Positions 13,497 through 36,440 are shown, counted from the first letter of the stretch. The stretch: DNA of 64,000 bases from an uncultured Burkholderiales bacterium (GCA_964620355.1 CAZUIT010000001.1:57563-121562), one strand, 5' to 3'. Program-made: numbers and translations. Notes: generated from the letters alone by a model not told the origin.

Positions 13497-16268
13497 TTGA
13501 GAACCAAGGCTGTGAAAATGACCAAAAACCAGCAAACTAATCCCGCCATTGATTTTCAAAGCGTTCTTGAACTTTCAAGTCTGCCTGTTGCCTTATGCCA
13601 TCTCGACGGGACGACAACCTTCTTGAATGACGCCTTCGACCGCTACTTCAGAAACGGTAAGAAAGGACCAGAAAACATTGCTTATCGCTTTATAGGCGAA
13701 GAAAATTGGGCGCAGATAATAGATAGCATTTCTAAAACGGGTGATTGGGATTCATATGCCATCCTGAACAAGGACAGCGGCGACGAGATCGTGCTTAAAA
13801 TTAAGGCCAGTTTAATCAAACAGACCGGGCAAGAGAATCTTATTGCTTTATATTTTACCGAAACCAATGAAGCGCGACGCAGAGTATTCCGTCAGGGTCA
13901 ATTGCTCAAGGCGGCGAGTGAGTCTTCTACCGCTCTAATCAATACCGACAACCTTCAAGAAAGCCTAAGCCAAGTAGCAGCGTCTTTAGGGAAAGCCGTT
14001 CAGGCCGATCGCTGCTATATATTTGAAAGCACCTTCCTCCCCGATTCCGATCAAATCTATGCGAGCTTGGTATCCCAATGGTCACGTTATCCAAAATTGG
14101 CCGACGAAGAGGAGGTGAGCATGATCAGTTATACCATATTTCGAGGTTTCTATGAAACACTTTTGAAAGACCAAGCCTATTCCAGATTAAGAAAAGAGGT
14201 TAATGGACATACCCTAAAATACTTGGAAAAAAGGAATATTCACTCCTTCATTTGTCTTCCAATCTATAAAGACGATGCACTTTGGGGCTTCATGGGCTTC
14301 GATGATTGTCAGGGGCCAAGGGAATGGGATGAGCAGGAAATTGCCAGTTTGCGTCTTCTCACAAACGGACTATCCTCTGTGATCAGCAATGACCAGCTTC
14401 GTACAGACCTTCAAAGAAATAACCTTCAGCTTGAATCCGCCATTAGAGCTTCCAAGGATAGCCTATGGGATTATGATGTCATTAAAGAACGCATCTATTA
14501 TGCACCACAATTCTTAGAACTACTCGGATACAATTCGCAAGAATTAGACGGCATTCTTACAGATTTGAAAACATTTGTTCACCCAAAAGATATCTATAAA
14601 ATTTATAAGGGACTTCAATATGTCGTGCAATCGGGTCAAGAAATTAGAGGGTTTGAAATCCGGCTTATTCATAAAAATGGCACCTTAATTTGGGTTCGGG
14701 TAACGGCGAGACCAACAACAGATTTAAATGGAAATACCCTCCGAATATCAGGATCGAATACCGATATCACACTCGAAAAACTTTATGAAACTAAGATCGC
14801 GGAGAGCCAGGAGCGTTATATTGAACTTGTTGACAACCTGAGAGAAACAGTGTTTCAGCTAAACAAGTCTGGTAGCATCATTTTTTTGAACGAGGCTTGG
14901 AAGATTCTCAGCGGAGTTTCCTTAGCAGAAAGTATGAAAAAAGATTTTCGCTCATTTATCATTCCTGATGATCAGTGGAAATTCGACAAAATGTTAAAAC
15001 ACCTTTTGGTGAATAAGAATGATTACCGAAGTTGTTTGGTACGGATCACCGGCCATCGAGAGGATGCAAAGTGGGCCGAAATTTATGCCCGGAGCTTCTT
15101 TAAAAAAGGAAACGAGCCTTATATCCTAGGAACAATCATCGACGTAAGCCAAAGACAATTCACCGAACAGAAATTAAAGGAAAGTGAGACACGGTACCGG
15201 CTTATTTCCGAGAATATAAGTGATTTAGTAACCTTACAAGATGAACATGGGCATTTTGTTTATGTTTCTCCTTCCATTCATGCCATCTTAGGCTTAGATG
15301 AAGTACAATTAATAGGCAAGACACCACGTGAAGTCTGGACAGAATCTCGGATAAAAGGCACAGCTTGGGAGCGCGATATATTCGACGCCTCCAATGAAAA
15401 CAGAAAAAGTTATGCCTTTACTAAAGCCAATGGCACATCCATCTGGTTAGAAACAGTTCGTTCTATTGTGTATACGGATAACCAAGAGCGCTATATTATT
15501 CAATCCACCACCCGGGATATTTCAGCATTCAAAGAGGCAGAAATCAGTTTAAAAACTGCGCTCGACAAACAGCGGGAATTGAATGAGCTGAAATCAAACT
15601 TTATCAGCATGGCTTCACATGAATTCCGTACGCCGCTTACTACGATTCGTTCGAGCATCCAACTTCTGGAAGAGTATGGCAGGAGTGCACCCGAGGACCA
15701 AAAGCTGAAAATGGCCAAACATTATGCGCGGATTAAAGCACAAATTGAGCGGGTTACTAGGCTTATGAATGATGTACTAACCCTTGGTAAGTTCGATGCC
15801 GGTAAAACACCATTTCATGCGAAAGCACACGATATCCATAAATTTTGCGAAGAGATTATTTCCGACCACTTTTCGAATGCTAATGATGGAAGAGCCATTA
15901 AATTGAGCATGAGCGGACCCGTGCAACCCCTGCTTTTTGATGCCAGCTTGCTTTCTCATGTTTTATTGAACCTCCTCTCAAATGCCCTCAAATATTCCAA
16001 AGGTAAACCAGACCCTGAGTTAGACATTCTGTTCAAAGAGGAAAACGTATCATTGATAATTCGAGACTATGGGATTGGCATTCCCGATGAGGATATTGGT
16101 CTTGTTTTTCAATCGTTTTACCGCTCAAAAAACGCCATTGACGTGCCGGGCACTGGTCTTGGCTTAGTTATAACAAAAGAATTTGTAGAATTGCATAACG
16201 GAATCATCTATATCAAGAGTGAGCTTAACAAGCAAACTGAAGTAATTGTAGAACTTCCTATCAACTAA
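13497..16268 (+). CDS. multi-sensor (PAS/GAF) histidine kinase
   Basis: The 923-aa product has an H-box (SMASHEFRTPLTTI) and G-boxes (DYGIGIP, GTGLGL) in its C-terminus. Upstream PAS- and GAF-like regions are present and there is no TM segment, so it is cytoplasmic. Confidence 0.8.
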   Translation: MRTKAVKMTKNQQTNPAIDFQSVLELSSLPVALCHLDGTTTFLNDAFDRYFRNGKKGPENIAYRFIGEENWAQIIDSISKTGDWDSYAILNKDSGDEIVLKIKASLIKQTGQENLIALYFTETNEARRRVFRQGQLLKAASESSTALINTDNLQESLSQVAASLGKAVQADRCYIFESTFLPDSDQIYASLVSQWSRYPKLADEEEVSMISYTIFRGFYETLLKDQAYSRLRKEVNGHTLKYLEKRNIHSFICLPIYKDDALWGFMGFDDCQGPREWDEQEIASLRLLTNGLSSVISNDQLRTDLQRNNLQLESAIRASKDSLWDYDVIKERIYYAPQFLELLGYNSQELDGILTDLKTFVHPKDIYKIYKGLQYVVQSGQEIRGFEIRLIHKNGTLIWVRVTARPTTDLNGNTLRISGSNTDITLEKLYETKIAESQERYIELVDNLRETVFQLNKSGSIIFLNEAWKILSGVSLAESMKKDFRSFIIPDDQWKFDKMLKHLLVNKNDYRSCLVRITGHREDAKWAEIYARSFFKKGNEPYILGTIIDVSQRQFTEQKLKESETRYRLISENISDLVTLQDEHGHFVYVSPSIHAILGLDEVQLIGKTPREVWTESRIKGTAWERDIFDASNENRKSYAFTKANGTSIWLETVRSIVYTDNQERYIIQSTTRDISAFKEAEISLKTALDKQRELNELKSNFISMASHEFRTPLTTIRSSIQLLEEYGRSAPEDQKLKMAKHYARIKAQIERVTRLMNDVLTLGKFDAGKTPFHAKAHDIHKFCEEIISDHFSNANDGRAIKLSMSGPVQPLLFDASLLSHVLLNLLSNALKYSKGKPDPELDILFKEENVSLIIRDYGIGIPDEDIGLVFQSFYRSKNAIDVPGTGLGLVITKEFVELHNGIIYIKSELNKQTEVIVELPIN

Positions 16269-16273
16269 AAACT

Positions 16274-17017
16274 ATGGACAGAATACTACTCATTGAAGAC
16301 GAACTTGACATCAGAGAGAACCTTGCGGAGCTCTTTGAAAACAGAAGTTTCACCGTCTTTACCGCTGAAAATGGTAATATTGGCTACGAAAAAGCGAGAG
16401 AAATTATTCCAGACGTGATAATTTCCGACGTAATCATGCCAGTGATGGACGGCTTTGAATTTCTTGAGGCCGTAAAAAATGACGCCAGAACCATGCATAT
16501 TCCAGTGATCATGCTTACGGCCAAAAGCATGCTCGAGTCTAAAATTCAAGGGCTCAAAATTGGCGCCGACGATTACGTAACCAAGCCCTTTGAGTTCGAA
16601 GAGCTTTTAGCACGCGTGCAATCTGCAATTCAAAACAGAAGACGCGTTTTACAAAAGATTAAAATTTCTCCAAGCGAAAGAGATGTGGAATCGAAAGACG
16701 ACGTTTTCTTGCGTAAAGTGATTACGGCCGTGGAGAAAAACATCGACAATTTTAATTTCTCCATCGATGATCTAGCCCGTGAAATTGGCTATAGTCGCTC
16801 ATCCATTCAGAAGAAAATTAAGGTGTTAACTGGCAAAACTACTTCTCAGCTTATCCGCGAATTTCGTTTAGAACGCGCACGACAACTCATTCAACAAGAT
16901 GCTGGATTCCTGAGCGAAATTGCCCTAGCTGTTGGCTTTAACAGTCTCAGTTACTTTAGCAATAGTTACAAAGAATATTTTGGTGTGCCGCCAAGCAAAA
17001 TCAAGAATATGCACTAG
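16274..17017 (+). CDS. response regulator, REC + AraC-type HTH output
   Basis: The receiver domain (LLIEDE..DVIISDVIMPVMDG) is followed by a C-terminal AraC HTH (SLSYFSNSYKEYFGVPPS). It starts 5 nt after the kinase stop. Confidence 0.85.
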   Translation: MDRILLIEDELDIRENLAELFENRSFTVFTAENGNIGYEKAREIIPDVIISDVIMPVMDGFEFLEAVKNDARTMHIPVIMLTAKSMLESKIQGLKIGADDYVTKPFEFEELLARVQSAIQNRRRVLQKIKISPSERDVESKDDVFLRKVITAVEKNIDNFNFSIDDLAREIGYSRSSIQKKIKVLTGKTTSQLIREFRLERARQLIQQDAGFLSEIALAVGFNSLSYFSNSYKEYFGVPPSKIKNMH

Positions 17018-28539: not shown

Positions 28540-29001
28540 TTAAGATAGAAGTTTCTGGCGCAGGTAAAATTCCAACTGCTCATTTGCTCGTTTCAACTCG
28601 TCGATAAGTCGCTCATTTTCTTTTCGAAGCATAAATACCTCATGTGCCTGGCGAATGGTCGTTTTCAAAAACTCGTTGTCCCAAGGTTTCGTTAGGTAAC
28701 GGTAAACCTCCCCTTTATTAATCGCATCCACCACCGCATTAATATCACTATAACCAGTGAGCAAAATTCGAATTGGATTTGGAGCGATTGGAATGACATT
28801 TTGTAGAAACTCAACCCCAGTCATATTCGGCATGCGCTGATCGGTTATGATAATATCAATATCTTCGTTCTTAACAATCTCTAAAGCCTCATGGCCAGAA
28901 ATTGCGGTGTGAACATTAAATTCACGTCTGAAGGCCGCTTTAAATGACAACAAATTATTTTGCTCGTCATCTACATAAAGTACATTTATTAATTGTGTCA
29001 T
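28540..29001 (-). CDS. stand-alone response regulator receiver (REC) protein
   Basis: It has LYVDDE..DIIITDQRMP..GVEF and the K of the KPW motif. It is divergent from the 29132 operon, with a 130-bp intergenic region. Confidence 0.8.
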   Translation of the reverse strand: MTQLINVLYVDDEQNNLLSFKAAFRREFNVHTAISGHEALEIVKNEDIDIIITDQRMPNMTGVEFLQNVIPIAPNPIRILLTGYSDINAVVDAINKGEVYRYLTKPWDNEFLKTTIRQAHEVFMLRKENERLIDELKRANEQLEFYLRQKLLS

Positions 29002-29131
29002 AACTTTCTCCCCTTACAAATTTAAAAATTCCTGCCTCCCAAACAATCACACTTATTCATTGAATTATTCAGCATAAGTGCATTATTTGCGGAATGTTAA
29101 TCGAATAATCACGTAAATACAAGGATTATCC

Positions 29132-31396
29132 ATGAATTACAATCTCCAAAACTGCAGTGAAAATGACTGGAAACCAGTGTTTATCGACCCTCGGAGCGAG
29201 GATGGAAAAAATACCATAGCGAAAATAAAAAATACGCCCGGAGTACAAATCCACGACCAAATAAAATCTCAGGTGAGTGAAATGCTTCGTGCTCGCTACC
29301 CGAAGAAAAAATTAAAAGGTGCGGCGCTGAGGGAAGCAGTAGATCAATTTTTTATAGAAAATGAAGCCTCAAGCTTTGGAGAATGGGTATTTTACCCTTG
29401 GAGCAAGCGGCTCATCCATATTCTTTCAAAAGAAGATTTTATTTTCACACGCCTTAGTCCAAACAACCCCAAAATCACCCGTGAGGAGCAATCCCGATTG
29501 ATGGATAAAAAAGTGGGTGTGGTAGGGCTTTCTGTGGGCCAATCTATTTCCCTGGTTCTGGCAATGGAAAGAATTTGTGGGGAACTTCGCATTGCCGATT
29601 TTGATATCCTTGAATTGGCTAATTTAAACCGTATTCGTGCTGGCTTGCACAATATGGGGCTTAATAAATCGGTTATGGTAGCGCGTGAGATAATGGAAAT
29701 CGACCCCTATTTTACCATTCGCATTTTCACAGATGGCATGACCCATGAAAATATGGATGCCTTTTTCCACGATGGAGGCGACCTCGATCTGATCGTTGAT
29801 GAATGCGACAGTATCGACATAAAAATTCTTTTGCGTGAAAAAGCAAAGTCAATGAAGATGCCTGTTGTTATGGATATGAGCGACCGAGGCACCATTGATA
29901 TTGAACGCTTTGATTTAGAACCCAACAGACCTTTATTACACGGATGGATTGATCACCTCGACATCAGTAAGCTGGGAGACATGACCAATGAACAAAAAGT
30001 TCCTTATATGCTTCCAATATTTGGTATGGACACCATCAGTAAAAGACTAAAGGCATCGATGGTGGAGATTGGAGAAAGCATCCACACTTGGCCTCAACTT
30101 GCAACATCAGTAGCCATGGGAGGAGCACTTGCGGCCGATACAGTTCGGCGTATTTTCTTGGACCAATTCCATGATTCTGGGAGATATTTTATCGATCTAG
30201 ACGAATTAATTCGCGATAAATCATACACTCCTAAACCCTTCATTCCTCAAGAATATTCATGGCCAATGCTTGAAGAAGATACCATGCGGCAATTGGCCAC
30301 AGACTTTGTTCAAAAAGCGCAATGGGGACTAGGAAACTTAAAGGCCACAGATGTCGATCCATTGATTGGTCTTGCGGCTATGGCGCCATCGGCTGGGAAC
30401 AATCAGCCTTGGAAATGGTTGTATCAAGACGGACACCTCTTTCTATTCCATGAAAAATCAAAGAGTTATTCTTGGACAGATTACGACGATTCACTCGCTC
30501 TTCTTGGATTAGGTGCTGCCGCAGAAAGCCTAAGGTTGGCAGCCTCTCGTTATGGGTATTCTTGTGAAGTAGTGAAAGTTTTAAATGCTCAGTTTATCGC
30601 TGCATTTCGATTTGAACCGAATTCCCTTGAGACGGCGCTTCCATTAGCACAGGGGATAGAAGTGCGTTGTTCGAATCGCAAAAAAGCAGAATTTAAAGAA
30701 ATACCCAGCACCTTGGAATTGGCCTTAAATGCATCATTAGAAGGCTTGACAGGCTTACGAATTGACCTCTTTAAAAAACCTGAAGAACTGGAAGCCTGGT
30801 CAAAAATTGTAGGAAAAGCAGAAAAACTACGCCTTTTAGATCCACAAGGCCACTACGAATTCTTTAAACATGAAATTCGGTGGACCGAGGAAGAAGCACT
30901 CCAAACAAGGAACGGCTTAGATATCGAAACATTAGAGCTAACTCCTTCTCAACTAGCTGGCTTGCAGGTAGGAAGTGATGCAGAGGTGATGCAAATTATC
31001 CGTAGTTGGAATCTCGGTGATGGACTCGAAAAGATGAGCAAGGAAGCGGTTCTTGCGTCATCTGCCATCTGCCTAATCAGCGCAGATGAGAGTCTTCTAA
31101 CAGATTCTTTGGCTCCTGGTGCAGCCCTGGAAAGAACATGGATTGCAGCAAATATGGAAGGCTGGTCGGTTCACCCCGTATCTGCCCCATTATTCTTCAT
31201 CCATCGAAATAAGCAGAAAAACAACCGCTTAGATGCTCAAATAAGCAAAGAAATTGTTCAATTAAGCCATGAAATCAACAAAATTACACCAATTTTGCAA
31301 GCAAGAAGAGGTGTGTTTCTTTTTCGCCTGAGTCATGCAGGATTGCCTAGCAAAAGAGCGATCAGGTTCCAAAACAATGAAATTTTAGTAAAATAA
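29132..31396 (+). CDS. E1-like (ThiF/MoeB) adenylyltransferase domain fused to FMN nitroreductase-like (SagB/ThcOx-type dehydrogenase) domain
   Basis: At residues 125-160 a GxxGxxxG loop is followed by DFDILELANLNR, which matches the ThiF motif. PSAGNNQPWKW around 30385-30417 is the classic nitroreductase FMN motif. The protein is 754 aa with a long linker. Confidence 0.6.
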   Translation: MNYNLQNCSENDWKPVFIDPRSEDGKNTIAKIKNTPGVQIHDQIKSQVSEMLRARYPKKKLKGAALREAVDQFFIENEASSFGEWVFYPWSKRLIHILSKEDFIFTRLSPNNPKITREEQSRLMDKKVGVVGLSVGQSISLVLAMERICGELRIADFDILELANLNRIRAGLHNMGLNKSVMVAREIMEIDPYFTIRIFTDGMTHENMDAFFHDGGDLDLIVDECDSIDIKILLREKAKSMKMPVVMDMSDRGTIDIERFDLEPNRPLLHGWIDHLDISKLGDMTNEQKVPYMLPIFGMDTISKRLKASMVEIGESIHTWPQLATSVAMGGALAADTVRRIFLDQFHDSGRYFIDLDELIRDKSYTPKPFIPQEYSWPMLEEDTMRQLATDFVQKAQWGLGNLKATDVDPLIGLAAMAPSAGNNQPWKWLYQDGHLFLFHEKSKSYSWTDYDDSLALLGLGAAAESLRLAASRYGYSCEVVKVLNAQFIAAFRFEPNSLETALPLAQGIEVRCSNRKKAEFKEIPSTLELALNASLEGLTGLRIDLFKKPEELEAWSKIVGKAEKLRLLDPQGHYEFFKHEIRWTEEEALQTRNGLDIETLELTPSQLAGLQVGSDAEVMQIIRSWNLGDGLEKMSKEAVLASSAICLISADESLLTDSLAPGAALERTWIAANMEGWSVHPVSAPLFFIHRNKQKNNRLDAQISKEIVQLSHEINKITPILQARRGVFLFRLSHAGLPSKRAIRFQNNEILVK

Positions 31397-31397
31397 A

Positions 31398-32084
31398 ATG
31401 TTTACGTTTAAGGCTTTTCGTGCTATTGACGAACCTGAACTTTGCGAACAATACACCGCAGGACATGTAAAGGTGTTAGAGGATTATGGAATTACCAATA
31501 TCACATCTAACAACAATGAATGGTCTAAGGTAGATTGTGTGTACTGTGTCGTCGTTTATGATGATTCCGGTGAAATGGTTGGGGGAATTCGTATGCAAAA
31601 GGCTGACGGCATTCATCAATTGCCTGTGGAAAAAGCCATTGGTTACCGTGATCCCCAGATTCACACCATAGTTAAATCCTATATCCCAGAAGGGGTTGGT
31701 GAATTATGTGCCTTATGGAACGCAAAAAGGGTGGCTGGAATAGGCTTAAGCTTGTTGTTGTCTAGGTCTGGAATTTCCATTTGCTCACAAGTAGGAATCT
31801 CTACGATGGTGGGCATTTGCGCTGATTATACACTCAATATGTTTCGAAGAGTTGGCTTCGTAGTCGACGAAAATTTGGGCAATTCTGGTGAATTTGTCTA
31901 CCCTAACGAAAATTATATAGCTAGAGTCTTAGGTATCTTGAACGCCAGAAATTTGGCCACTGCCGACGACGAAGATAGAATTAGAATGCTCTCATTACGT
32001 GAGAGCCCAGAGCAAGTATTCACAGAAAACTCGTCCAAGACCCCTCTTGAAATTTCGTACCAATTAAAAATGAACATCAAATGA
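31398..32084 (+). CDS. hypothetical protein, GNAT-like fold suspected (acyltransferase / N-acyl amino acid- or autoinducer-synthase-like)
   Basis: The 228-aa product starts 2 nt after the stop of the E1-NTR gene. ELCALWNAKRVAGIGLSLLL resembles the GNAT acyl-CoA binding motif (R/Q-x-x-G-x-G/A). I do not have a secure family assignment. Confidence 0.3.
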   Translation: MFTFKAFRAIDEPELCEQYTAGHVKVLEDYGITNITSNNNEWSKVDCVYCVVVYDDSGEMVGGIRMQKADGIHQLPVEKAIGYRDPQIHTIVKSYIPEGVGELCALWNAKRVAGIGLSLLLSRSGISICSQVGISTMVGICADYTLNMFRRVGFVVDENLGNSGEFVYPNENYIARVLGILNARNLATADDEDRIRMLSLRESPEQVFTENSSKTPLEISYQLKMNIK

Positions 32085-34231
32085 TGCGCAGAGCGATTGC
32101 AATTCTGTCATGGATTCTTCTAAGCACCAACCTACTTTGGGGACAGGAAAACTTTGTTCGCCTGGTGAACGAGAATGAAGTCATTCAGGTTAAAAACCAA
32201 TGTTCCTATTTTGAAACGTCCATCGATACCGCTCAAATTGAAAACATAGTCAATTATGAATTCACCCCGGTAGACCAAGACGTTCCAAATTTTGGGATAA
32301 GCTCCTCCACCTACTGGTTAAAAATTGAAGTTAAGAATGAAACAGATATAGAAGACTATGTGCTTCAAGTAGCTCAGCCCATTCTCGACCTCGTTCAATT
32401 CTTCGACCTGAGCGACTCTGGCTTTAGAACCGTAACCTTAGGTGAGCACCTTAACTTCGAAGAACGTCTCTATTATGACCCGAACTATTTATTCGCATTT
32501 AAAATAAAGCCTGGCGAATCCAAAACCCTGTATGTCAAAGTTCAGGCTAAAGAAAACGTGCAGGTTCCGATGAGTCTTGGTTCTCGGCAAAGTATGTTGG
32601 CCTTGACCAAGAAAAAGGATGTTTTCTCTGGCATATACCTGGGAATCATGCTTGTAATGCTATTGTACAACGCATTCATTTACATCAGCACAAAGGATAA
32701 ATCGTACATGTACTATGTGCTGTATTTGCTCTTTGTTATTTTGACCCAAAGCAGTATTCATGGTTATAGTTTCCAATACCTGTGGCCAAATTTACCTTGG
32801 CTTGCCCGCTTTAATAGCTTCCTTTTCCCTTCTCTCGTAGGAATTACTGGCATGCAATTTATGCGTGTATTCCTTCATACGAGTAGGCATTCCAAAAATT
32901 TCGATCGAATCTTTTATATCGTCGTTGCAGGATATGCCATTGGAACGAGTCTTTCATTTCTTGAATTTTTCAAAAGTAGCTTCTATCTAATTGAAGTGTG
33001 TGCGGTAATCGCTTCCGCTTCTATGATGTATATGGCGGTACGTATCGCCAGAACTGGTGATCGACCAGCATTCTTCTTCTCCATTGCTTGGGCAGTATTC
33101 CTCTTTGGAATAGCCCTATACGTTATGAAGGATTTTGGCATACTTCCATACAATAACTTCACCTATTATATGATGCCTGTTGGCTCTGCAATTGAAGTAA
33201 TGCTGCTCTCCTTTGCCTTGGCCGATCGTATCAATATCTTAAAAAAGGAAAAAGAAGCTTCGCAGGAAGAGGCTTTACGTGTATCGTTAGAGAATGAACG
33301 CATCATACGCGAGCAGAATGCCTACTTGGAACAAAAAGTTCAAGAGCGCACCATTGAATTGCAGGAAACGAATGAAGAGTTAGTGGTTACCCTGAACAAC
33401 TTGAAAGAAACTCAAGCCCAACTTGTGGATGCGGAGAAAATGGCTTCCTTGGGTCAGCTAACTGCCGGAATTGCCCATGAAATCAATAACCCAATCAACT
33501 TCGTAAGCGCTAATGTGCAACCGCTCAGGCTCGATATTCAAGATATCATGTCGATTATCGATCAATACGGTGAAGCATATCAAGCAGAGGATATTGTTGA
33601 AGCAGTGAAAAGTGTAGAAGCCTTTAAAAAGGAAATCGATTTCGACTATATCCGAAATGAAATTGTGGAACTGCTAACGGGAATTGAAGACGGTGCCGTA
33701 CGTACCGCAGAAATTGTAAAAGGACTAAAAACCTTCAGTCGCCTTGATGAGTCTGATTTGAAACCTGCTGACTTGAATGAAGGCCTGCAATCAACCTTAA
33801 TTTTGCTTCGTAACTCAGTTCCTGATAATGTGGAGGTAGAAACCGAGCTTGACGACCTTCCTCCCGTTGAATGTTTCCCAGGAAAAATTAATCAAATCTT
33901 CATGAACATCATCTCAAATGCCCTCCAGGCCATGAAGGTGGTTCAAAAAGATGAGAAACACCATCTGATCATCAAATCCCATTTTGACGAGAAAAACGTT
34001 TACTTTTCCATTAAAGATAGTGGGCCAGGAATGACTGACTCTGTAAAATCAAGAATTTTCGAGCCCTTTTTCACAACAAAAGACGTGGGTGAAGGAACAG
34101 GACTTGGCCTCTCCATCGTTTTTAAAATCATTGAAACACATGGAGGTAATATTGATGTAAATACAGCACCAGGCAGCGGAACTGAATTTTTGATTTCTTT
34201 GCCAATAGTAGCCAATATCCAGACCAACTGA
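32081..34231 (+). CDS. 7TM-DISM-type sensor histidine kinase
   Basis: It has a signal peptide, an extracellular domain of about 160 aa and seven hydrophobic helices (residues 185-380). A coiled coil is followed by the H-box LTAGIAHEINNP and G-boxes. Its ATGA start overlaps the upstream stop. Confidence 0.7.
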   Translation: MMRRAIAILSWILLSTNLLWGQENFVRLVNENEVIQVKNQCSYFETSIDTAQIENIVNYEFTPVDQDVPNFGISSSTYWLKIEVKNETDIEDYVLQVAQPILDLVQFFDLSDSGFRTVTLGEHLNFEERLYYDPNYLFAFKIKPGESKTLYVKVQAKENVQVPMSLGSRQSMLALTKKKDVFSGIYLGIMLVMLLYNAFIYISTKDKSYMYYVLYLLFVILTQSSIHGYSFQYLWPNLPWLARFNSFLFPSLVGITGMQFMRVFLHTSRHSKNFDRIFYIVVAGYAIGTSLSFLEFFKSSFYLIEVCAVIASASMMYMAVRIARTGDRPAFFFSIAWAVFLFGIALYVMKDFGILPYNNFTYYMMPVGSAIEVMLLSFALADRINILKKEKEASQEEALRVSLENERIIREQNAYLEQKVQERTIELQETNEELVVTLNNLKETQAQLVDAEKMASLGQLTAGIAHEINNPINFVSANVQPLRLDIQDIMSIIDQYGEAYQAEDIVEAVKSVEAFKKEIDFDYIRNEIVELLTGIEDGAVRTAEIVKGLKTFSRLDESDLKPADLNEGLQSTLILLRNSVPDNVEVETELDDLPPVECFPGKINQIFMNIISNALQAMKVVQKDEKHHLIIKSHFDEKNVYFSIKDSGPGMTDSVKSRIFEPFFTTKDVGEGTGLGLSIVFKIIETHGGNIDVNTAPGSGTEFLISLPIVANIQTN

Positions 34232-34241
34232 TTCTATAACT

Positions 34242-35333
34242 ATGACGAAAGCCCGGGCACGTATACTTTATATTGATGATGAGGACAATAACCTCAAGGC
34301 ATTTAAGGCAAGCTTTAGAAGGGATTTCGAAATCTATACGGTTTCCGATGCCAATGAAGCGTACCGAATCCTAGATGAAATTGAAATACATGTGGCCTTG
34401 GCGGATCAACGAATGCCCAAGGTTTCTGGAGTGGAATTTTTTGAAAAGATTCAAGAGAAGCATCCTGATATTGTACGTATTTTAATTACTGCTTATACCA
34501 ACTCACAAACCATTATTGATGCAGTAAACAAAGGGAAAATTAATCAGTATGTTGTAAAACCTTGGGACCCACAAAACCTCAAGAATATCATCGATTCTTC
34601 ATTTAATGCACATCAGGTTAAAAAAGAATTGAAGATGAAAAATGCGGAACTGCTCAAAACCAATGATGAGCTCAACCGATTCGTGTACAGCGCTTCACAT
34701 GATCTTCGTGCGCCGCTTATGTCTATTCTTGGCTTGGTAGAGTTATCGCGCCTTGAAAAGGAATCAGGCGACCCATTTATTTACCTCGATATGATTGAAA
34801 AAAGCGTTCAAAAGCTGGATGTCTTTATTCAAAATATCATAGAATATTATCAAAATGCCCGCGCCGAATCAAATTACGAACAAATTGATTTCAAGGTGCT
34901 GGTAAATGATGTAGTTGATACGCTTAAGAATACCGACCCTTCTGTGAAGTTTCTCCTTGACATTGAACAAGATTGCGACTATTTTAACGATGAATTTCGC
35001 GTACATGTTATCATGAATAACCTTGTTTCAAATGCCATCAAATACCAAAAATCAGATGCAGGAAACCCGGAGGTTAGTATTCAGGTTAAAGTAGACCATC
35101 AAAAGGCCATTATACGGATTAAAGATAACGGGGTAGGTATCTTGCAGGAACACCTTGAAAATATTTTCAAAATGTTCTTCCGAACCAAAACCCTAAACCG
35201 TACCCCAGGCACAGGAATAGGATTGTATATTATCAAGGAAGCCTTGTCAAAAATTAATGGCGAAATTCAGGTGAACTCTGTATTTGGAGAAGGAACCACA
35301 TTTGAACTCGTATTGCCTAATCTAGAAGCATAA
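34242..35333 (+). CDS. hybrid response regulator-histidine kinase (REC + HisKA + HATPase)
   Basis: The N-terminal REC (ILYIDDE..ALADQRMP..KPW) is followed by the H-box SASHDLRAPL and then DNGVGI / GTGIGL G-boxes. Confidence 0.8.
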   Translation: MTKARARILYIDDEDNNLKAFKASFRRDFEIYTVSDANEAYRILDEIEIHVALADQRMPKVSGVEFFEKIQEKHPDIVRILITAYTNSQTIIDAVNKGKINQYVVKPWDPQNLKNIIDSSFNAHQVKKELKMKNAELLKTNDELNRFVYSASHDLRAPLMSILGLVELSRLEKESGDPFIYLDMIEKSVQKLDVFIQNIIEYYQNARAESNYEQIDFKVLVNDVVDTLKNTDPSVKFLLDIEQDCDYFNDEFRVHVIMNNLVSNAIKYQKSDAGNPEVSIQVKVDHQKAIIRIKDNGVGILQEHLENIFKMFFRTKTLNRTPGTGIGLYIIKEALSKINGEIQVNSVFGEGTTFELVLPNLEA

Positions 35334-35334
35334 A

Positions 35335-35727
35335 ATGAGCACAAATCCGTACATAATTCTTGTCGATGACAACGAGATTGATCTATTTCTTCACGAAAAG
35401 CTCATTCGCCTAAGTGGTATTAGTGATAATATTGATCGATTCACGACTGCCCGAGAGGCCTTGGACTTCATTCGTAAAAAAGGACCACTTCCTGATATTA
35501 TTCTGCTCGACATTCAAATGCCTGAATTGGATGGATTCGATTTCTTGCGAGAATATGAGCATATTGAGCATATTGATCGCGAAAACACCACCATATTTAT
35601 GGTGTCTTCCTCTTTAGACTTTGGCGATATCTCTAAGGCTAAAGCCAACCCCCTAGTTAAGTCATTCATTAAAAAGCCCCTTAACGTGAAGGAACTGAAA
35701 GACGAAATATCGACTTCGGCGAACTAA
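35335..35727 (+). CDS. stand-alone response regulator receiver protein
   Basis: It is REC only ([24 protein letters not shown]). It starts 1 nt after the previous stop. Confidence 0.8.
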
Positions 35728-36440
35728 CGGAACAAATTATATTTAAGTATGCACCAGATGGCACGAAAGCCATCCTTCCAACCAATTTTCTTTCCTTCCT
35801 CATAGGTTCTGCCATAATACGAGATGCCAACTTCATAAATGCGGATGTTTTCGATACGCGCCAGCTTAGCGGTTACCTCAGGCTCAAACCCAAAACGTTT
35901 CTCATTGAGCTCCAAACCTTGAATTAATTCCCGCTTGAATGCCTTATAACACGTTTCCATGTCGGTGAGGTTCAAGTTGGTAAACATATTTGAGAGTAGT
36001 GTTAAAAACTTGTTTCCTATTGTATGCCAGAAAAAGAGGATTCGATGCGGATTACCACCCATAAACCGAGAACCATAGACCACATCGGCCACCTCTTCAC
36101 GGAAAGGTTTTAACACATCATTGTATTCACGTGGATCATACTCCAAATCAGCATCCTGAATGATAACTACATCGCCAGTTGCTTTCTCAATCCCCGTATG
36201 AAGAGCTGCTCCCTTGCCTTTATTTACCTCATGAGAATAAAAGGTAATGGACAAATCAGGATTGTTCACCATGTAATTTTCTACGGCCTCAACAGTATTG
36301 TCTTTCGAGCAATCATTCACAATGATTACTTCCTTTTCAATATCGCCAATTAAGTCAACTGCCTTCACCTTATCAAGGATAAAATGAATAGTCCTTCCCT
36401 CATTATAGGCCGGAATTACGATGGATAATTTCTTGATCAA
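35724..36440 (-). CDS. family 2 glycosyltransferase, polyprenyl-phosphate mannose/glucose synthase (Dpm1-like)
   Basis: [21 protein letters not shown] and the QDADLEY DxD motif match the Dpm1-like GT2 family. Confidence 0.75.

Follow-up and report, generated by a model that had tools for sequence, protein, structure and literature searches.

Why should two biosynthetic enzymes be encoded in the midst of a phosphorelay? The question is raised by a run of six genes in the 64,000-nucleotide window (the whole stretch of DNA analyzed here), for which an earlier note, made from the sequence alone, had found no described system and had suggested either a small-molecule or peptide signal that is made and sensed, or a sensor-controlled modification system. 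The genes, as given by the ORF listing, and the domains and sites within them are as follows:

28540-29001, minus strand: receiver gene, 153 aa
29002-29131, no strand: divergent promoter region, 130 bp between the receiver gene and the operon
29132-31396, plus strand: ThiF-oxidase fusion gene, 754 aa
29462-30181, plus strand: ThiF region of the fusion enzyme, residues ~111-350 (Pfam)
30347-31393, plus strand: FMN oxidase region of the fusion enzyme, nitroreductase superfamily, residues ~406-754
31398-32084, plus strand: GNAT-fold acyltransferase gene, 228 aa
32081-34231, plus strand: 7TMR-DISM sensor kinase gene, 716 aa
32195-32578, plus strand: periplasmic 7TMR-DISMED2 domain (PF07696, 98 bits)
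32621-33229, plus strand: 7TMR-DISM seven-helix region (PF07695, 182 bits)
33476-33478, plus strand: DHp His466, in AHEINNP (H-box read in the sequence)
34242-35333, plus strand: REC-kinase hybrid gene, 363 aa
35335-35727, plus strand: terminal single-domain receiver gene, 130 aa

The six open reading frames, their spacings of 1, -4, 10 and 1 nt and the 130-bp divergent gap are the same in the ORF listing and in the junction sequences, which were read directly. The fusion gene meets the 228-aa gene at TAAaATG (1 nt), the latter overlaps the sensor kinase gene by 4 nt at ATGA, the sensor kinase and hybrid genes are joined as TGA, 10 nt and ATG, and a second TAAaATG (1 nt) leads from the hybrid to the terminal receiver gene. 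The tight operon structure originally proposed is backed by coordinates and junctions alike, and the module leaves no gap for any extra gene. The domain calls made with it (REC, ThiF, nitroreductase, 7TM-DISM and hybrid kinase) were all borne out by Pfam and NCBIfam searches. The six genes form a self-contained module, found in environmental Bacteroidota and divided into a synthesis half and a signaling half.

The fusion enzyme matches the NCBIfam model NF005901 ("Rv1355c family") over residues 9-752 with 730 bits, against a cut-off of 476 bits, and aligns end to end with actinobacterial Rv1355c-family proteins at 29-31% identity. It scores 65 bits with Pfam ThiF and 22.4 bits with Pfam Nitroreductase, the latter below the cut-off of 23.5; a phmmer search of the PDB returned the Acg nitroreductase 2YMV (E = 6e-8), with TcdA also among the matches. 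The N-acyl-oxazolone pathway OxzAB/TrzAS (de Rond et al., 2020, bioRxiv 10.1101/2020.06.11.147165; Grigg et al., 2023, PMC10404671; Kleetz et al., 2025, PMC12856293) is represented by OxzAB in Pseudoalteromonas rubra and by TrzAS and TyzACB in Mycobacterium tuberculosis, M. smegmatis and Rhodococcus jostii. In TrzS(Msmeg), the residues tested were D217 for the ATP/cyclase function and R540 and Q651 for the FMN/desaturase function; no product was formed by the D217A mutant, and the R540A mutant was strongly impaired in desaturation (Kleetz et al., 2025). Located from the mutagenic primers in the supplement of that paper (VEEC[D]SLDA, TDRI[R]YLTP and GVSV[Q]PVSP), these positions align with D226, kept in 66/66 orthologues, R567, kept in 65/66, and H681, where 37 orthologues have Q and 29 have H, the latter also found in one Rhodococcus family member. 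As position 681 is H and not Q, two of the three TrzS catalytic residues are strictly retained. On sequence grounds, the fusion enzyme belongs over its full length to the Rv1355c (TrzS/OxzB) family and is a predicted ATP-/FMN-dependent N-acyl-oxazolone synthetase. Its ThiF domain is conserved at 63% identity with 46% near-invariant columns, versus 35% and 9% in the oxidase. An E1/ubiquitin-like or sulfur-carrier activation system was rejected, given that no ThiS, MoaD or ubiquitin-like carrier gene lies in the gap-free module or is conserved within 10 kb across 81 loci.

For the 228-aa protein neither Pfam nor NCBIfam gave a match, even at E<=10, and hence there was none to the autoinducer-synthase model. 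The AF2 model of the protein (pLDDT 88) adopts a GNAT fold, in agreement with the GNAT-like nature first assigned to it, and is closest to the N-acyl amino acid synthase FeeM and to LuxI-type synthases at 9-15% identity, from which it differs by an extra conserved C-terminal helix and beta-hairpin. The family was also compared by hhalign with the acyltransferases encoded beside Rv1355c-family genes in Nocardia, Rhodococcus, Gordonia and Williamsia (probability 97.7%, E = 1.8e-12). By this profile comparison the 228-aa protein is a remote homologue of the TrzA-position acyltransferase of Actinomycetota, and it is predicted to be an N-acyl amino acid synthase in the OxzA/TrzA role. A LuxI-type AHL synthase was rejected, the similarity being one of fold only, at 11-15% identity, and the autoinducer-synthase family model being unmatched (Pfam, E<=10), and a JGI record naming one homologue "N-acyl-L-homoserine lactone synthetase" was treated as an over-annotation. 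Conservation is high in the acyltransferase and in the ThiF domain (61-63% identity). Given the Rv1355c-family membership of the fusion enzyme and the homology of the acyltransferase, the enzyme pair maps to the described OxzAB/TrzAS system; the view that the gene set has no described counterpart is not supported. The relay layout matches that of Ralstonia phcBSRQ, and a peptide product is unlikely for this enzyme family.

In the signaling half, the sensor kinase consists of a signal peptide, DISMED2, the seven-helix region, a conserved coiled linker, DHp and ATPase domain, with Pfam matches to HisKA and HATPase_c (81 bits). It is a 7TMR-DISM receptor histidine kinase, combining DISMED2, 7TM and DHp/ATPase regions with the phospho-accepting His. 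Of all parts of the module, DISMED2 is conserved least (31% identity, 6% near-invariant columns), versus 50% and 22% in the 7TM region. The hybrid is a cytoplasmic REC+HisKA+HATPase_c protein with Asp55 and His153 and, according to Pfam, no DNA-binding domain; its kinase core resembles the TorS/ArcB/BarA type (NCBIfam). The divergently encoded protein comprises a REC domain with Asp54 (Pfam Response_reg, 76 bits) and a 33-aa C-terminal helix, has its best NCBIfam matches among AtoC/ZraR/NtrC/NosR-type receivers, and is 39% identical over 137 aa to the REC and linker of the hybrid. These two similar receivers both resemble AtoC/ZraR/NtrC, while the sensor kinase resembles AtoS/ZraS; within the module, the divergent receiver is the core partner. 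The terminal receiver (Asp59) has its best NCBIfam matches in the receiver domains of TorS, BarA and ArcB, all hybrid kinases, and is only 27% identical to the divergent receiver over 66 aa; judged by these matches, it is of another REC class than the remaining two. All phospho-accepting Asp and His residues of the module are intact in the sequence as read, and neither Pfam nor family clustering over 81 loci reveals a DNA-binding or other recognizable output domain in it.

In the 130-bp divergent region, the minus-strand sequence TAAATTTGTA, placed for the receiver gene, fits a TAnnTTTG box, which we take to be the Bacteroidota -7 consensus, and ATTATTTGC lies on the plus strand ~40 nt upstream of the operon ATG. 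The region also contains an imperfect palindrome, TTGAATTATTCA. All three blocks are kept in the closest relatives; the palindrome is confined to these nearest relatives (2/51 intergenic regions), and a search of the 51 regions yielded no operator motif common to the whole module.

Conservation of the gene neighborhood, named beforehand in the earlier note as a test on which its reading should stand or fall, proved very strong. We took the 228-aa gene as anchor in 80 GTDB loci, one per species, and scored each neighbor only where the flank was long enough. The next gene after that for the acyltransferase encodes the DISM kinase in 70/71 loci, and the fusion enzyme lies upstream of the acyltransferase in 64/67; the receiver is present and divergent in 62/64, the REC-HK hybrid present in 55/70 and the terminal REC in 48/68. 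Unbiased ORF clustering of 81 loci recovered the six module families in 81, 75, 74, 66, 64 and 55 loci, the next family occurring in 22, with no further conserved gene family within 10 kb. The flanks differ among loci, the six families alone being widely common, and the linkage spans Bacteroidota genera from Pedobacter to Sporocytophaga: chance cannot account for such an arrangement. In three further loci with called genes, the enzyme-enzyme junction measures 1-11 nt; most others are overlaps or below 30 nt, the widest is 44 nt, and junctions are looser in loci L092 and L093. The link between enzymes and kinase persists where the genes are reordered and where the nitroreductase domain is lost. 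Sphingobacterium locus L092 encodes the N-acyl amino acid synthase (NAS), a ThiF-only protein, DISM kinase, REC-HK and REC without the oxidase, and locus L046 is an oxidase-less variant that keeps the kinase linkage. Locus L094 carries NAS, DISM kinase, REC and PAS-HK, a Flavobacteriales MAG module carries a REC-PAS-HK, locus L082 has two NAS paralogues without ThiF-NTR, and protein P0356 is a ThiF-acyltransferase fusion. The genomic evidence favors a functional link between product and kinase, and is neutral as to the direction in which information flows.

The linkage of oxazolone enzymes to a sensor kinase suggests that these lipids are self-made signals, and the two halves most likely form a produce-and-sense lipid-signal circuit, a reading to which we give about an even chance. 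In such a circuit, the 228-aa GNAT enzyme would N-acylate a free amino acid from acyl-CoA or acyl-ACP, and the ThiF-FMN oxidase would use ATP to adenylate and cyclize the N-acyl amino acid and FMN/O2 to desaturate it, giving an N-acyl oxazolone as in TrzAS/OxzAB. The 7TMR-DISM kinase would probably pass phosphate to the divergent receiver and to its paralogue in the hybrid, whose kinase core would then probably phosphorylate the terminal single-domain receiver. The kinase ligand would be either the product, which is lipophilic and prone to hydrolysis, or the N-acyl amino acid from which it is made. Binding would probably take place in the better conserved seven-helix bundle and not in the periplasmic domain. 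Because the module encodes no DNA-binding domain, output would proceed via protein-protein contacts or unlinked regulators. The authors of the oxazolone studies have pointed to the resemblance to AHL signals, the lability in water and the location of trzAS beside c-di-GMP genes. Tryptazolones are mainly intracellular, with the N-acyl-Trp precursor in the supernatant (Kleetz et al., 2025), so that what diffuses may be something other than the oxazolone, and bacteria exposed to oxazolones displayed no phenotype (de Rond et al., 2020). The module has no transcription factor closing an autoinduction loop, and a divergent relative, locus L095, has the enzyme pair without a downstream kinase, both of which count against the circuit.

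Locus L095 would also suit a fortuitous adjacency of unrelated enzyme and two-component genes, a reading effectively refuted by the near-universal co-occurrence (70/71 and 64/67) across genera with unrelated flanks and by its persistence through gene-order changes. A possible but less likely alternative is that DISMED2 lets the kinase respond to some cue from outside or from the envelope that has nothing to do with the product, and that the relay governs how much N-acyl oxazolone or N-acyl amino acid is made or how active it is; this compound would be an effector (antimicrobial, stress-protective or membrane lipid, surfactant) and not the ligand. With its fast-evolving DISMED2, the kinase could sense something variable and external, as expected of a domain that tracks changing outside cues; moreover, antibiotics induce oxazolone production in Proteobacteria, the M. 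tuberculosis loci are linked to stress, related N-acyl tyrosines are antimicrobial and tryptazolones are mostly cell-associated. Such control agrees less well with a module devoid of any DNA-binding or recognizable output domain to switch the operon on, with enzyme genes that are predicted to be co-transcribed and translationally coupled with the kinase instead of having a separate regulated promoter, and with an acyltransferase-kinase adjacency that varies less than any other feature and persists when the second enzyme is missing or substituted.

An acyl-adenylate or saturated azlactone made by ThiF might instead be passed to a nucleophile on protein, lipid or cell wall, with the phosphorelay monitoring or gating the modification and oxazolone desaturation being accessory. 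The far stronger conservation of ThiF than of the oxidase, the kinase linkage retained by both oxidase-less loci and the ThiF-acyltransferase fusion would all agree with this, as would the saturated cyclized intermediates that TrzS forms at limiting O2 (PMC12856293). We nevertheless regard it as improbable: characterized family members all make free small molecules, across 81 loci the module has no conserved gene for a carrier (ThiS, MoaD or ubiquitin-like), an acceptor or a transferase, and R567 is kept, its TrzS counterpart R540 lining the predicted FMN site and being needed for efficient desaturation.

A produce-and-sense circuit has its closest organizational parallel in phcBSRQ, which encodes a signal synthase, a sensor kinase, a REC and kinase protein without DNA-binding domain and a REC-only protein (PMC8578825). 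Both loci place a synthase of a fatty-acyl-derived signal, predicted as such in our case, in one operon with a membrane kinase, a REC-kinase and a REC-only protein. PhcB is a methyltransferase, whereas the enzymes here are of GNAT, ThiF and nitroreductase type, with no methyltransferase domain detected by Pfam or NCBIfam; without PhcB homology, the locus is analogous to phcBSRQ and not a member. The parts of the two systems are not homologous, the kinase here having 7TMR-DISM domains and PhcS being a different membrane sensor, and Ralstonia output reaches the LysR regulator PhcA, a type of partner without known counterpart for this module. In LuxM/LuxN, AinS/AinR, CqsA/CqsS and LqsA/LqsS, too, a synthase gene lies beside that of a polytopic kinase, which binds a hydrophobic acyl signal among its transmembrane helices and signals into a phosphorelay; these pairs have another synthase chemistry and belong to another receptor family and phylum than our module, in which ligand binding is hypothetical. 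The Pseudomonas receptors RetS, LadS and NicD likewise join a DISMED2 and seven-helix sensor to a signaling output; no co-encoded small-molecule synthase is known for any of them, and their reported ligands are not lipids.

The enzyme half shares with OxzAB/TrzAS the ThiF-FMN oxidase fusion, as a full-length NF005901 member with catalytic Asp and Arg kept, and an adjoining acyltransferase gene (1-nt gap) homologous to the TrzA-position protein. It differs in its reversed gene order, with the synthetase preceding the acyltransferase, and in its occurrence in Bacteroidota, the oxazolone papers found covering Proteobacteria, Actinomycetota and Planctomycetota. Oxazolone clusters of Actinomycetota adjoin c-di-GMP enzymes, as do the oxazolone genes of Rhodococcus loci L089 and L006. 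Described oxazolone systems are two- or three-gene clusters, whereas here the pair is hard-wired to a 7TMR-DISM phosphorelay, a coupling described in no paper that we found. The enzyme pair itself is already described as OxzAB/TrzAS; what is new is its coupling to the phosphorelay.

An earlier note, made from the sequence alone, had placed six genes at window positions 28540-35727, and an ORF listing reproduced all of them. They lie between housekeeping flanks assigned with Pfam:

Upstream flank: phosphoglucomutase
28540-29001 (-): stand-alone receiver (REC), divergently transcribed
29132-31396 (+): 754-aa ThiF-FMN-oxidase fusion (synthetase, or ThiF-NTR)
31398-32084 (+): 228-aa acyltransferase
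32081-34231 (+): 716-aa 7TMR-DISM sensor kinase (DISM kinase)
34242-35333 (+): 363-aa receiver-kinase hybrid (REC-kinase)
35335-35727 (+): 130-aa terminal receiver
35724-36440 (-): downstream flank, GT2 glycosyltransferase ORF, convergent, overlapping the last receiver's stop by 4 nt as listed; then DNA polymerase I

Direct reading places the divergent genes 130 bp apart and gives the remaining junctions as a TAA stop, 1 nt and ATG between the synthetase and acyltransferase genes, an ATGA overlap between the acyltransferase and DISM kinase genes, TGA and 10 nt before the REC-kinase gene, and TAA, 1 nt and ATG before the terminal receiver. No terminator-like hairpin was found between this last receiver and the convergent GT2 gene. 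GC content varies little along the window (0.38-0.45) and therefore offers no hint of a foreign island, and T9SS sorting-domain proteins are encoded near the module, consistent with a Bacteroidota genome. Outside the module, a separate histidine-kinase/receiver coding region (15540-16627, +) is weakly similar to the module kinase and receivers, at 29-36% identity.

Regulatory scans returned 17 sigma-70 promoter sites against 20 expected and 11 terminator candidates against 6±2.8 expected, with 0 of the 11 at gene ends. When 51 divergent intergenic regions were screened for an operator common to the module, only AT-rich words and TAnnTTTG-like boxes emerged. Between the divergent promoters of the window lies an imperfect palindrome, TTGAATTATTCA (29058-29074). 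Its two nearest counterparts, in the closest relatives, form a perfect TTGAAT(T/A)ATTCAA, and more distant loci lack it, so that it occurs in 2 of the 51 regions.

The domain assignments of the earlier note were largely borne out by Pfam, which detected a Response_reg domain in the divergent receiver, ThiF in the synthetase (754 aa), 7TMR-DISMED2 and 7TMR-DISM_7TM together with HisKA and HATPase_c in the sensor kinase (716 aa), REC, again with HisKA and HATPase_c, in the hybrid (363 aa), and REC in the terminal receiver (130 aa). The proposed nitroreductase half was sub-threshold in Pfam, but was settled by NCBIfam model NF005901 ("Rv1355c family protein"; residues 9-752, 730 bits against a cut-off of 476) and by the match of the C-terminal half of the 754-aa protein to the solved Acg nitroreductase. 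The phospho-acceptor residues are all present (Asp54, Asp55 with His153, Asp59 and kinase His466), and the 716-aa kinase starts with a signal peptide.

Rv1355c is TrzS, which together with the acyltransferase TrzA (Rv1356c) yields N-acyl tryptazolones, TrzA performing the acyl-CoA-dependent N-acylation of L-tryptophan and TrzS an ATP cyclisation followed by FMN/O2 desaturation (PMC12856293). Oxazolones do not survive acid or alcohols (PMC12856293). TrzAS extends two other systems, OxzAB from Pseudoalteromonas rubra (bioRxiv 10.1101/2020.06.11.147165) and, in M. tuberculosis, TyzACB (PMC10404671). The window synthetase aligns end to end with actinobacterial Rv1355c-family proteins at 29-31% identity. 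Three tested residues of TrzS(Msmeg), located via the mutagenic primer sequences in the supplement of PMC12856293, fall on window D226 (D217; kept in 66/66 Bacteroidota orthologues), R567 (R540; 65/66) and H681 (Q651; 37 orthologues have Q and 29 have H). Plasmid Rv1355c-family genes of Mycolicibacterium/Mycobacterium (L005, L088, L090) adjoin a cytochrome P450 and a TetR regulator, a context that differs from chromosomal trzAS. Their annotated neighbours include no TrzA-like acyltransferase, and a downstream ORF tested in L005 gave no match to the acyltransferase family, so these loci are of no use as TrzA bridges.

For the acyltransferase, the bridge to TrzA was provided by ORFs adjoining Rv1355c-family genes in Rhodococcus qingshengii, where the ORF is divergent from that gene and beside a GGDEF gene, and in Nocardia farcinica, where it lies on the same strand directly upstream. 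The two ORFs share 44% identity, and each matches the Bacteroidota acyltransferase profile with 91-94% probability; a 21-member actinobacterial profile aligned to the Bacteroidota profile over 166 columns (probability 97.7%, E 1.8e-12). With the Nocardia protein as query, all homologues retrieved came from Nocardia, Rhodococcus, Williamsia and Gordonia. The TrzA link is therefore one of synteny and of the statement on these genera in PMC12856293. The gene order in R. pyridinivorans is acyltransferase, ThiF-NTR, GAF-GGDEF-EAL; Rv1356c lies upstream of Rv1355c, and that locus adjoins the c-di-GMP genes Rv1354c and Rv1357c (PMC12856293), from whose numbering we infer that the two orders are the same. 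With GGDEF or GAF-GGDEF-EAL genes flanking the Rhodococcus acyltransferase/ThiF-NTR pairs (L006:1844-3579 and L089:8826-10682), the pathway is linked to a signalling gene in another phylum as well, there by way of a different second-messenger system. Because of the synthetase alignment and residues, together with the acyltransferase profile and synteny matches, the window enzyme pair is, as judged by homology, a Bacteroidota member of the oxazolone pathway. Membership of the 228-aa protein in the LuxI family and an E1-carrier-protein reading were also considered, and both were rejected on membership tests.

A scan with one genome per GTDB species found 90 loci, of which 80 were kept, in Pedobacter, Chitinophagaceae, Flavipsychrobacter, Nemorincola, Cytophagaceae, Sporocytophaga and Vicingaceae among the named loci; uncultured Bacteroidota MAGs, at 80% identity, stand closest to the window. 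Among loci whose flanking DNA was long enough to judge, the ThiF-NTR gene lies immediately upstream of the acyltransferase gene in 64/67 and the 7TMR-DISM kinase immediately downstream in 70/71 (~99%), with the divergent receiver present in 62/64, the REC-kinase in 55/70 and the terminal receiver in 48/68. Blind clustering of all ORFs within 10 kb recovered only the six module families as widely common, in 81, 75, 74, 66, 64 and 55 of 81 loci, the next commonest occurring in 22 of 81, and the genes flanking the module vary between lineages. Clustering and neighbour counts thus define a six-gene module with four near-universal genes: the divergent receiver, synthetase, acyltransferase and kinase. 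Judged by ORF clustering within 10 kb at the 81 loci, the module includes neither a transporter nor a DNA-binding regulator. The adjacency of enzyme and kinase genes, which might have been fortuitous, is thereby decisively upheld in relatives.

The wider acyltransferase family comprises 577 representatives at 50% identity in a full HMMER scan. The following variants were found, the fusions (P-numbers, family representatives) coming from the representative search:

L092:8001-13835, Sphingobacterium yanglingense: acyltransferase (270 aa), 362-aa ThiF-only protein, DISM kinase, REC-kinase, convergent 155-aa receiver
Flavobacteriales MAG: standard order, with a REC-PAS-kinase
Another divergent contig: acyltransferase, DISM kinase, REC, PAS-kinase
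One divergent locus: enzyme pair, no kinase downstream
L082:9264-10681, MAG Bacteroidota DC_HB_02: second acyltransferase paralogue in place of ThiF-NTR, in tandem with the usual one
L046 and L052, Cytophagaceae LF-bin-428: two module copies in one genome bin
L035:2358-5465, Chitinophagaceae MAG: methyltransferase, GT2 glycosyltransferase and NAD epimerase/dehydratase between the ThiF-NTR and acyltransferase genes
P0356 (L091:6409-8307): ThiF-acyltransferase fusion, 632 aa, no kinase nearby
Among P0320, P0300 and P0240: TIR-acyltransferase fusion, 570 aa; LRR-acyltransferase fusion, 662 aa; 479-aa protein with two stretches matching the 228-aa family profile

The Sphingobacterium ThiF-only protein has no oxidase domain, implying cyclisation or adenylation of the product with no desaturation step. 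In DC_HB_02 the two acyltransferases are 47% identical (hhalign E 5e-80), the kinase, REC-kinase and both receivers are retained, and ~850 bp of non-coding DNA lies upstream. One LF-bin-428 copy has a full ThiF-NTR and the other a 525-aa protein in which the ThiF domain alone was detected; the three genes inserted in the Chitinophagaceae locus may encode tailoring enzymes or may have no relation to the module. From these contexts the acyltransferase-kinase pair emerges as the most constant element, and the enzyme-kinase linkage persists through rearrangement. The acyltransferase family may also have roles outside the module, as its TIR and LRR fusions hint. The MAG carrying P0356 is labelled Phycisphaerae in its assembly record and Saprospiraceae in nr. 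Short contigs with the module also occur in bins labelled 'Candidatus Saccharibacteria' (L019) and 'Akkermansia' (L066); their proteins are 56-64% identical to Bacteroidota ones, and these placements are probably binning errors rather than transfers.

The kinase core of the DISM kinase resembles AtoS and ZraS, and in NCBIfam the divergent receiver and the hybrid's receiver, which are paralogues (39% identity over 137 aa, including a helical linker), resemble those of AtoC, ZraR and NtrC. TorS, ArcB and BarA are the kinases that the hybrid's core resembles, and the terminal receiver, of a different class from the other two, resembles the receivers of these same hybrid kinases (NCBIfam). From these resemblances and the paralogy we predict a phosphotransfer wiring in which the DISM kinase would phosphorylate the divergent receiver and the hybrid's receiver, and the hybrid kinase the terminal receiver.

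We regard a circuit that produces and senses a lipid signal as the most likely function of the module, with a confidence of about even. Its main rival, which we hold to be rather unlikely, is that the kinase senses first and controls the making of an effector lipid. Across module loci, conservation is high in the acyltransferase, at 61% identity, and in the ThiF domain, at 63% with 46% near-invariant columns, but not in the oxidase domain (35%, 9%); in the kinase, the cytoplasmic parts are highly conserved (54-67%), the seven-helix region is intermediate (50%, 22%) and the periplasmic DISMED2 is the least conserved part (31%, 6%). If a conserved product is the ligand, these patterns would make the membrane bundle a more plausible ligand site than DISMED2; equally, the variable DISMED2 could read an unrelated external cue, and its variability is the main evidence keeping the sense-then-make alternative alive. 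Within the produce-and-sense reading, we tentatively propose, at somewhat below even confidence, a Bacteroidota-specific cell-cell or self signalling system whose autoinducer would be an N-acyl amino acid or its oxazolone, with the 7TMR-DISM seven-helix bundle as receptor.

If true, this autoinducer reading would give bacterial N-acyl oxazolones their first physiological role and 7TMR-DISM receptors a class of lipid ligand of which we know of no report, and it would place a native quorum-sensing-like circuit in Bacteroidota, for which no characterised synthase-receptor pair is known to us; a widespread, mostly orphan receptor class would also gain a candidate ligand. For Kleetz et al. (2025), what oxazolones do physiologically is "a major unresolved question", and they raise signalling only as a possibility, from chemical resemblance and neighbouring c-di-GMP genes (PMC12856293). 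The Bacteroidota module, with its enzyme pair translationally coupled to a dedicated kinase, offers a much sharper handle on this role. It occurs in culturable species of Pedobacter, among them P. steynii (L039) and P. psychroterrae (L020), and a genetically tractable environmental branch of that genus has been reported (PMC12181424), which makes the role of oxazolones testable. Were the rival reading true, no dedicated regulatory system would have been tied to these lipids before this module.

The searched literature on oxazolones, ThiF proteins (reviews), N-acyl-tyrosines and Pedobacter natural products mentions no histidine kinase, two-component system or Bacteroidota oxazolone locus. That on 7TMR-DISM receptors yielded no link to oxazolone enzymes, and none was found connecting oxazolone, ThiF or nitroreductase genes to 7TMR-DISM, Bacteroidota or Pedobacter, a passing mention in Burroughs et al. 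2009 (E1-like superfamily) being possible. The view that the gene set maps to no described system thus stands for the coupled module and falls for its enzymes, since the biosynthetic half is of the OxzAB/TrzAS kind. In the phcBSRQ operon of Ralstonia, a methyltransferase makes a fatty-acid methyl-ester signal, PhcS is the sensor kinase, PhcR combines a receiver with a kinase domain and has no DNA-binding domain, and PhcQ is a receiver only (PMC8578825). The operon logic of the module matches that of phcBSRQ, by analogy and not by homology. LuxM/LuxN, CqsA/CqsS and LqsA/LqsS are further pairs of a synthase and a membrane kinase, and under the autoinducer reading this small group of synthase-kinase signalling operons would gain a new chemistry.
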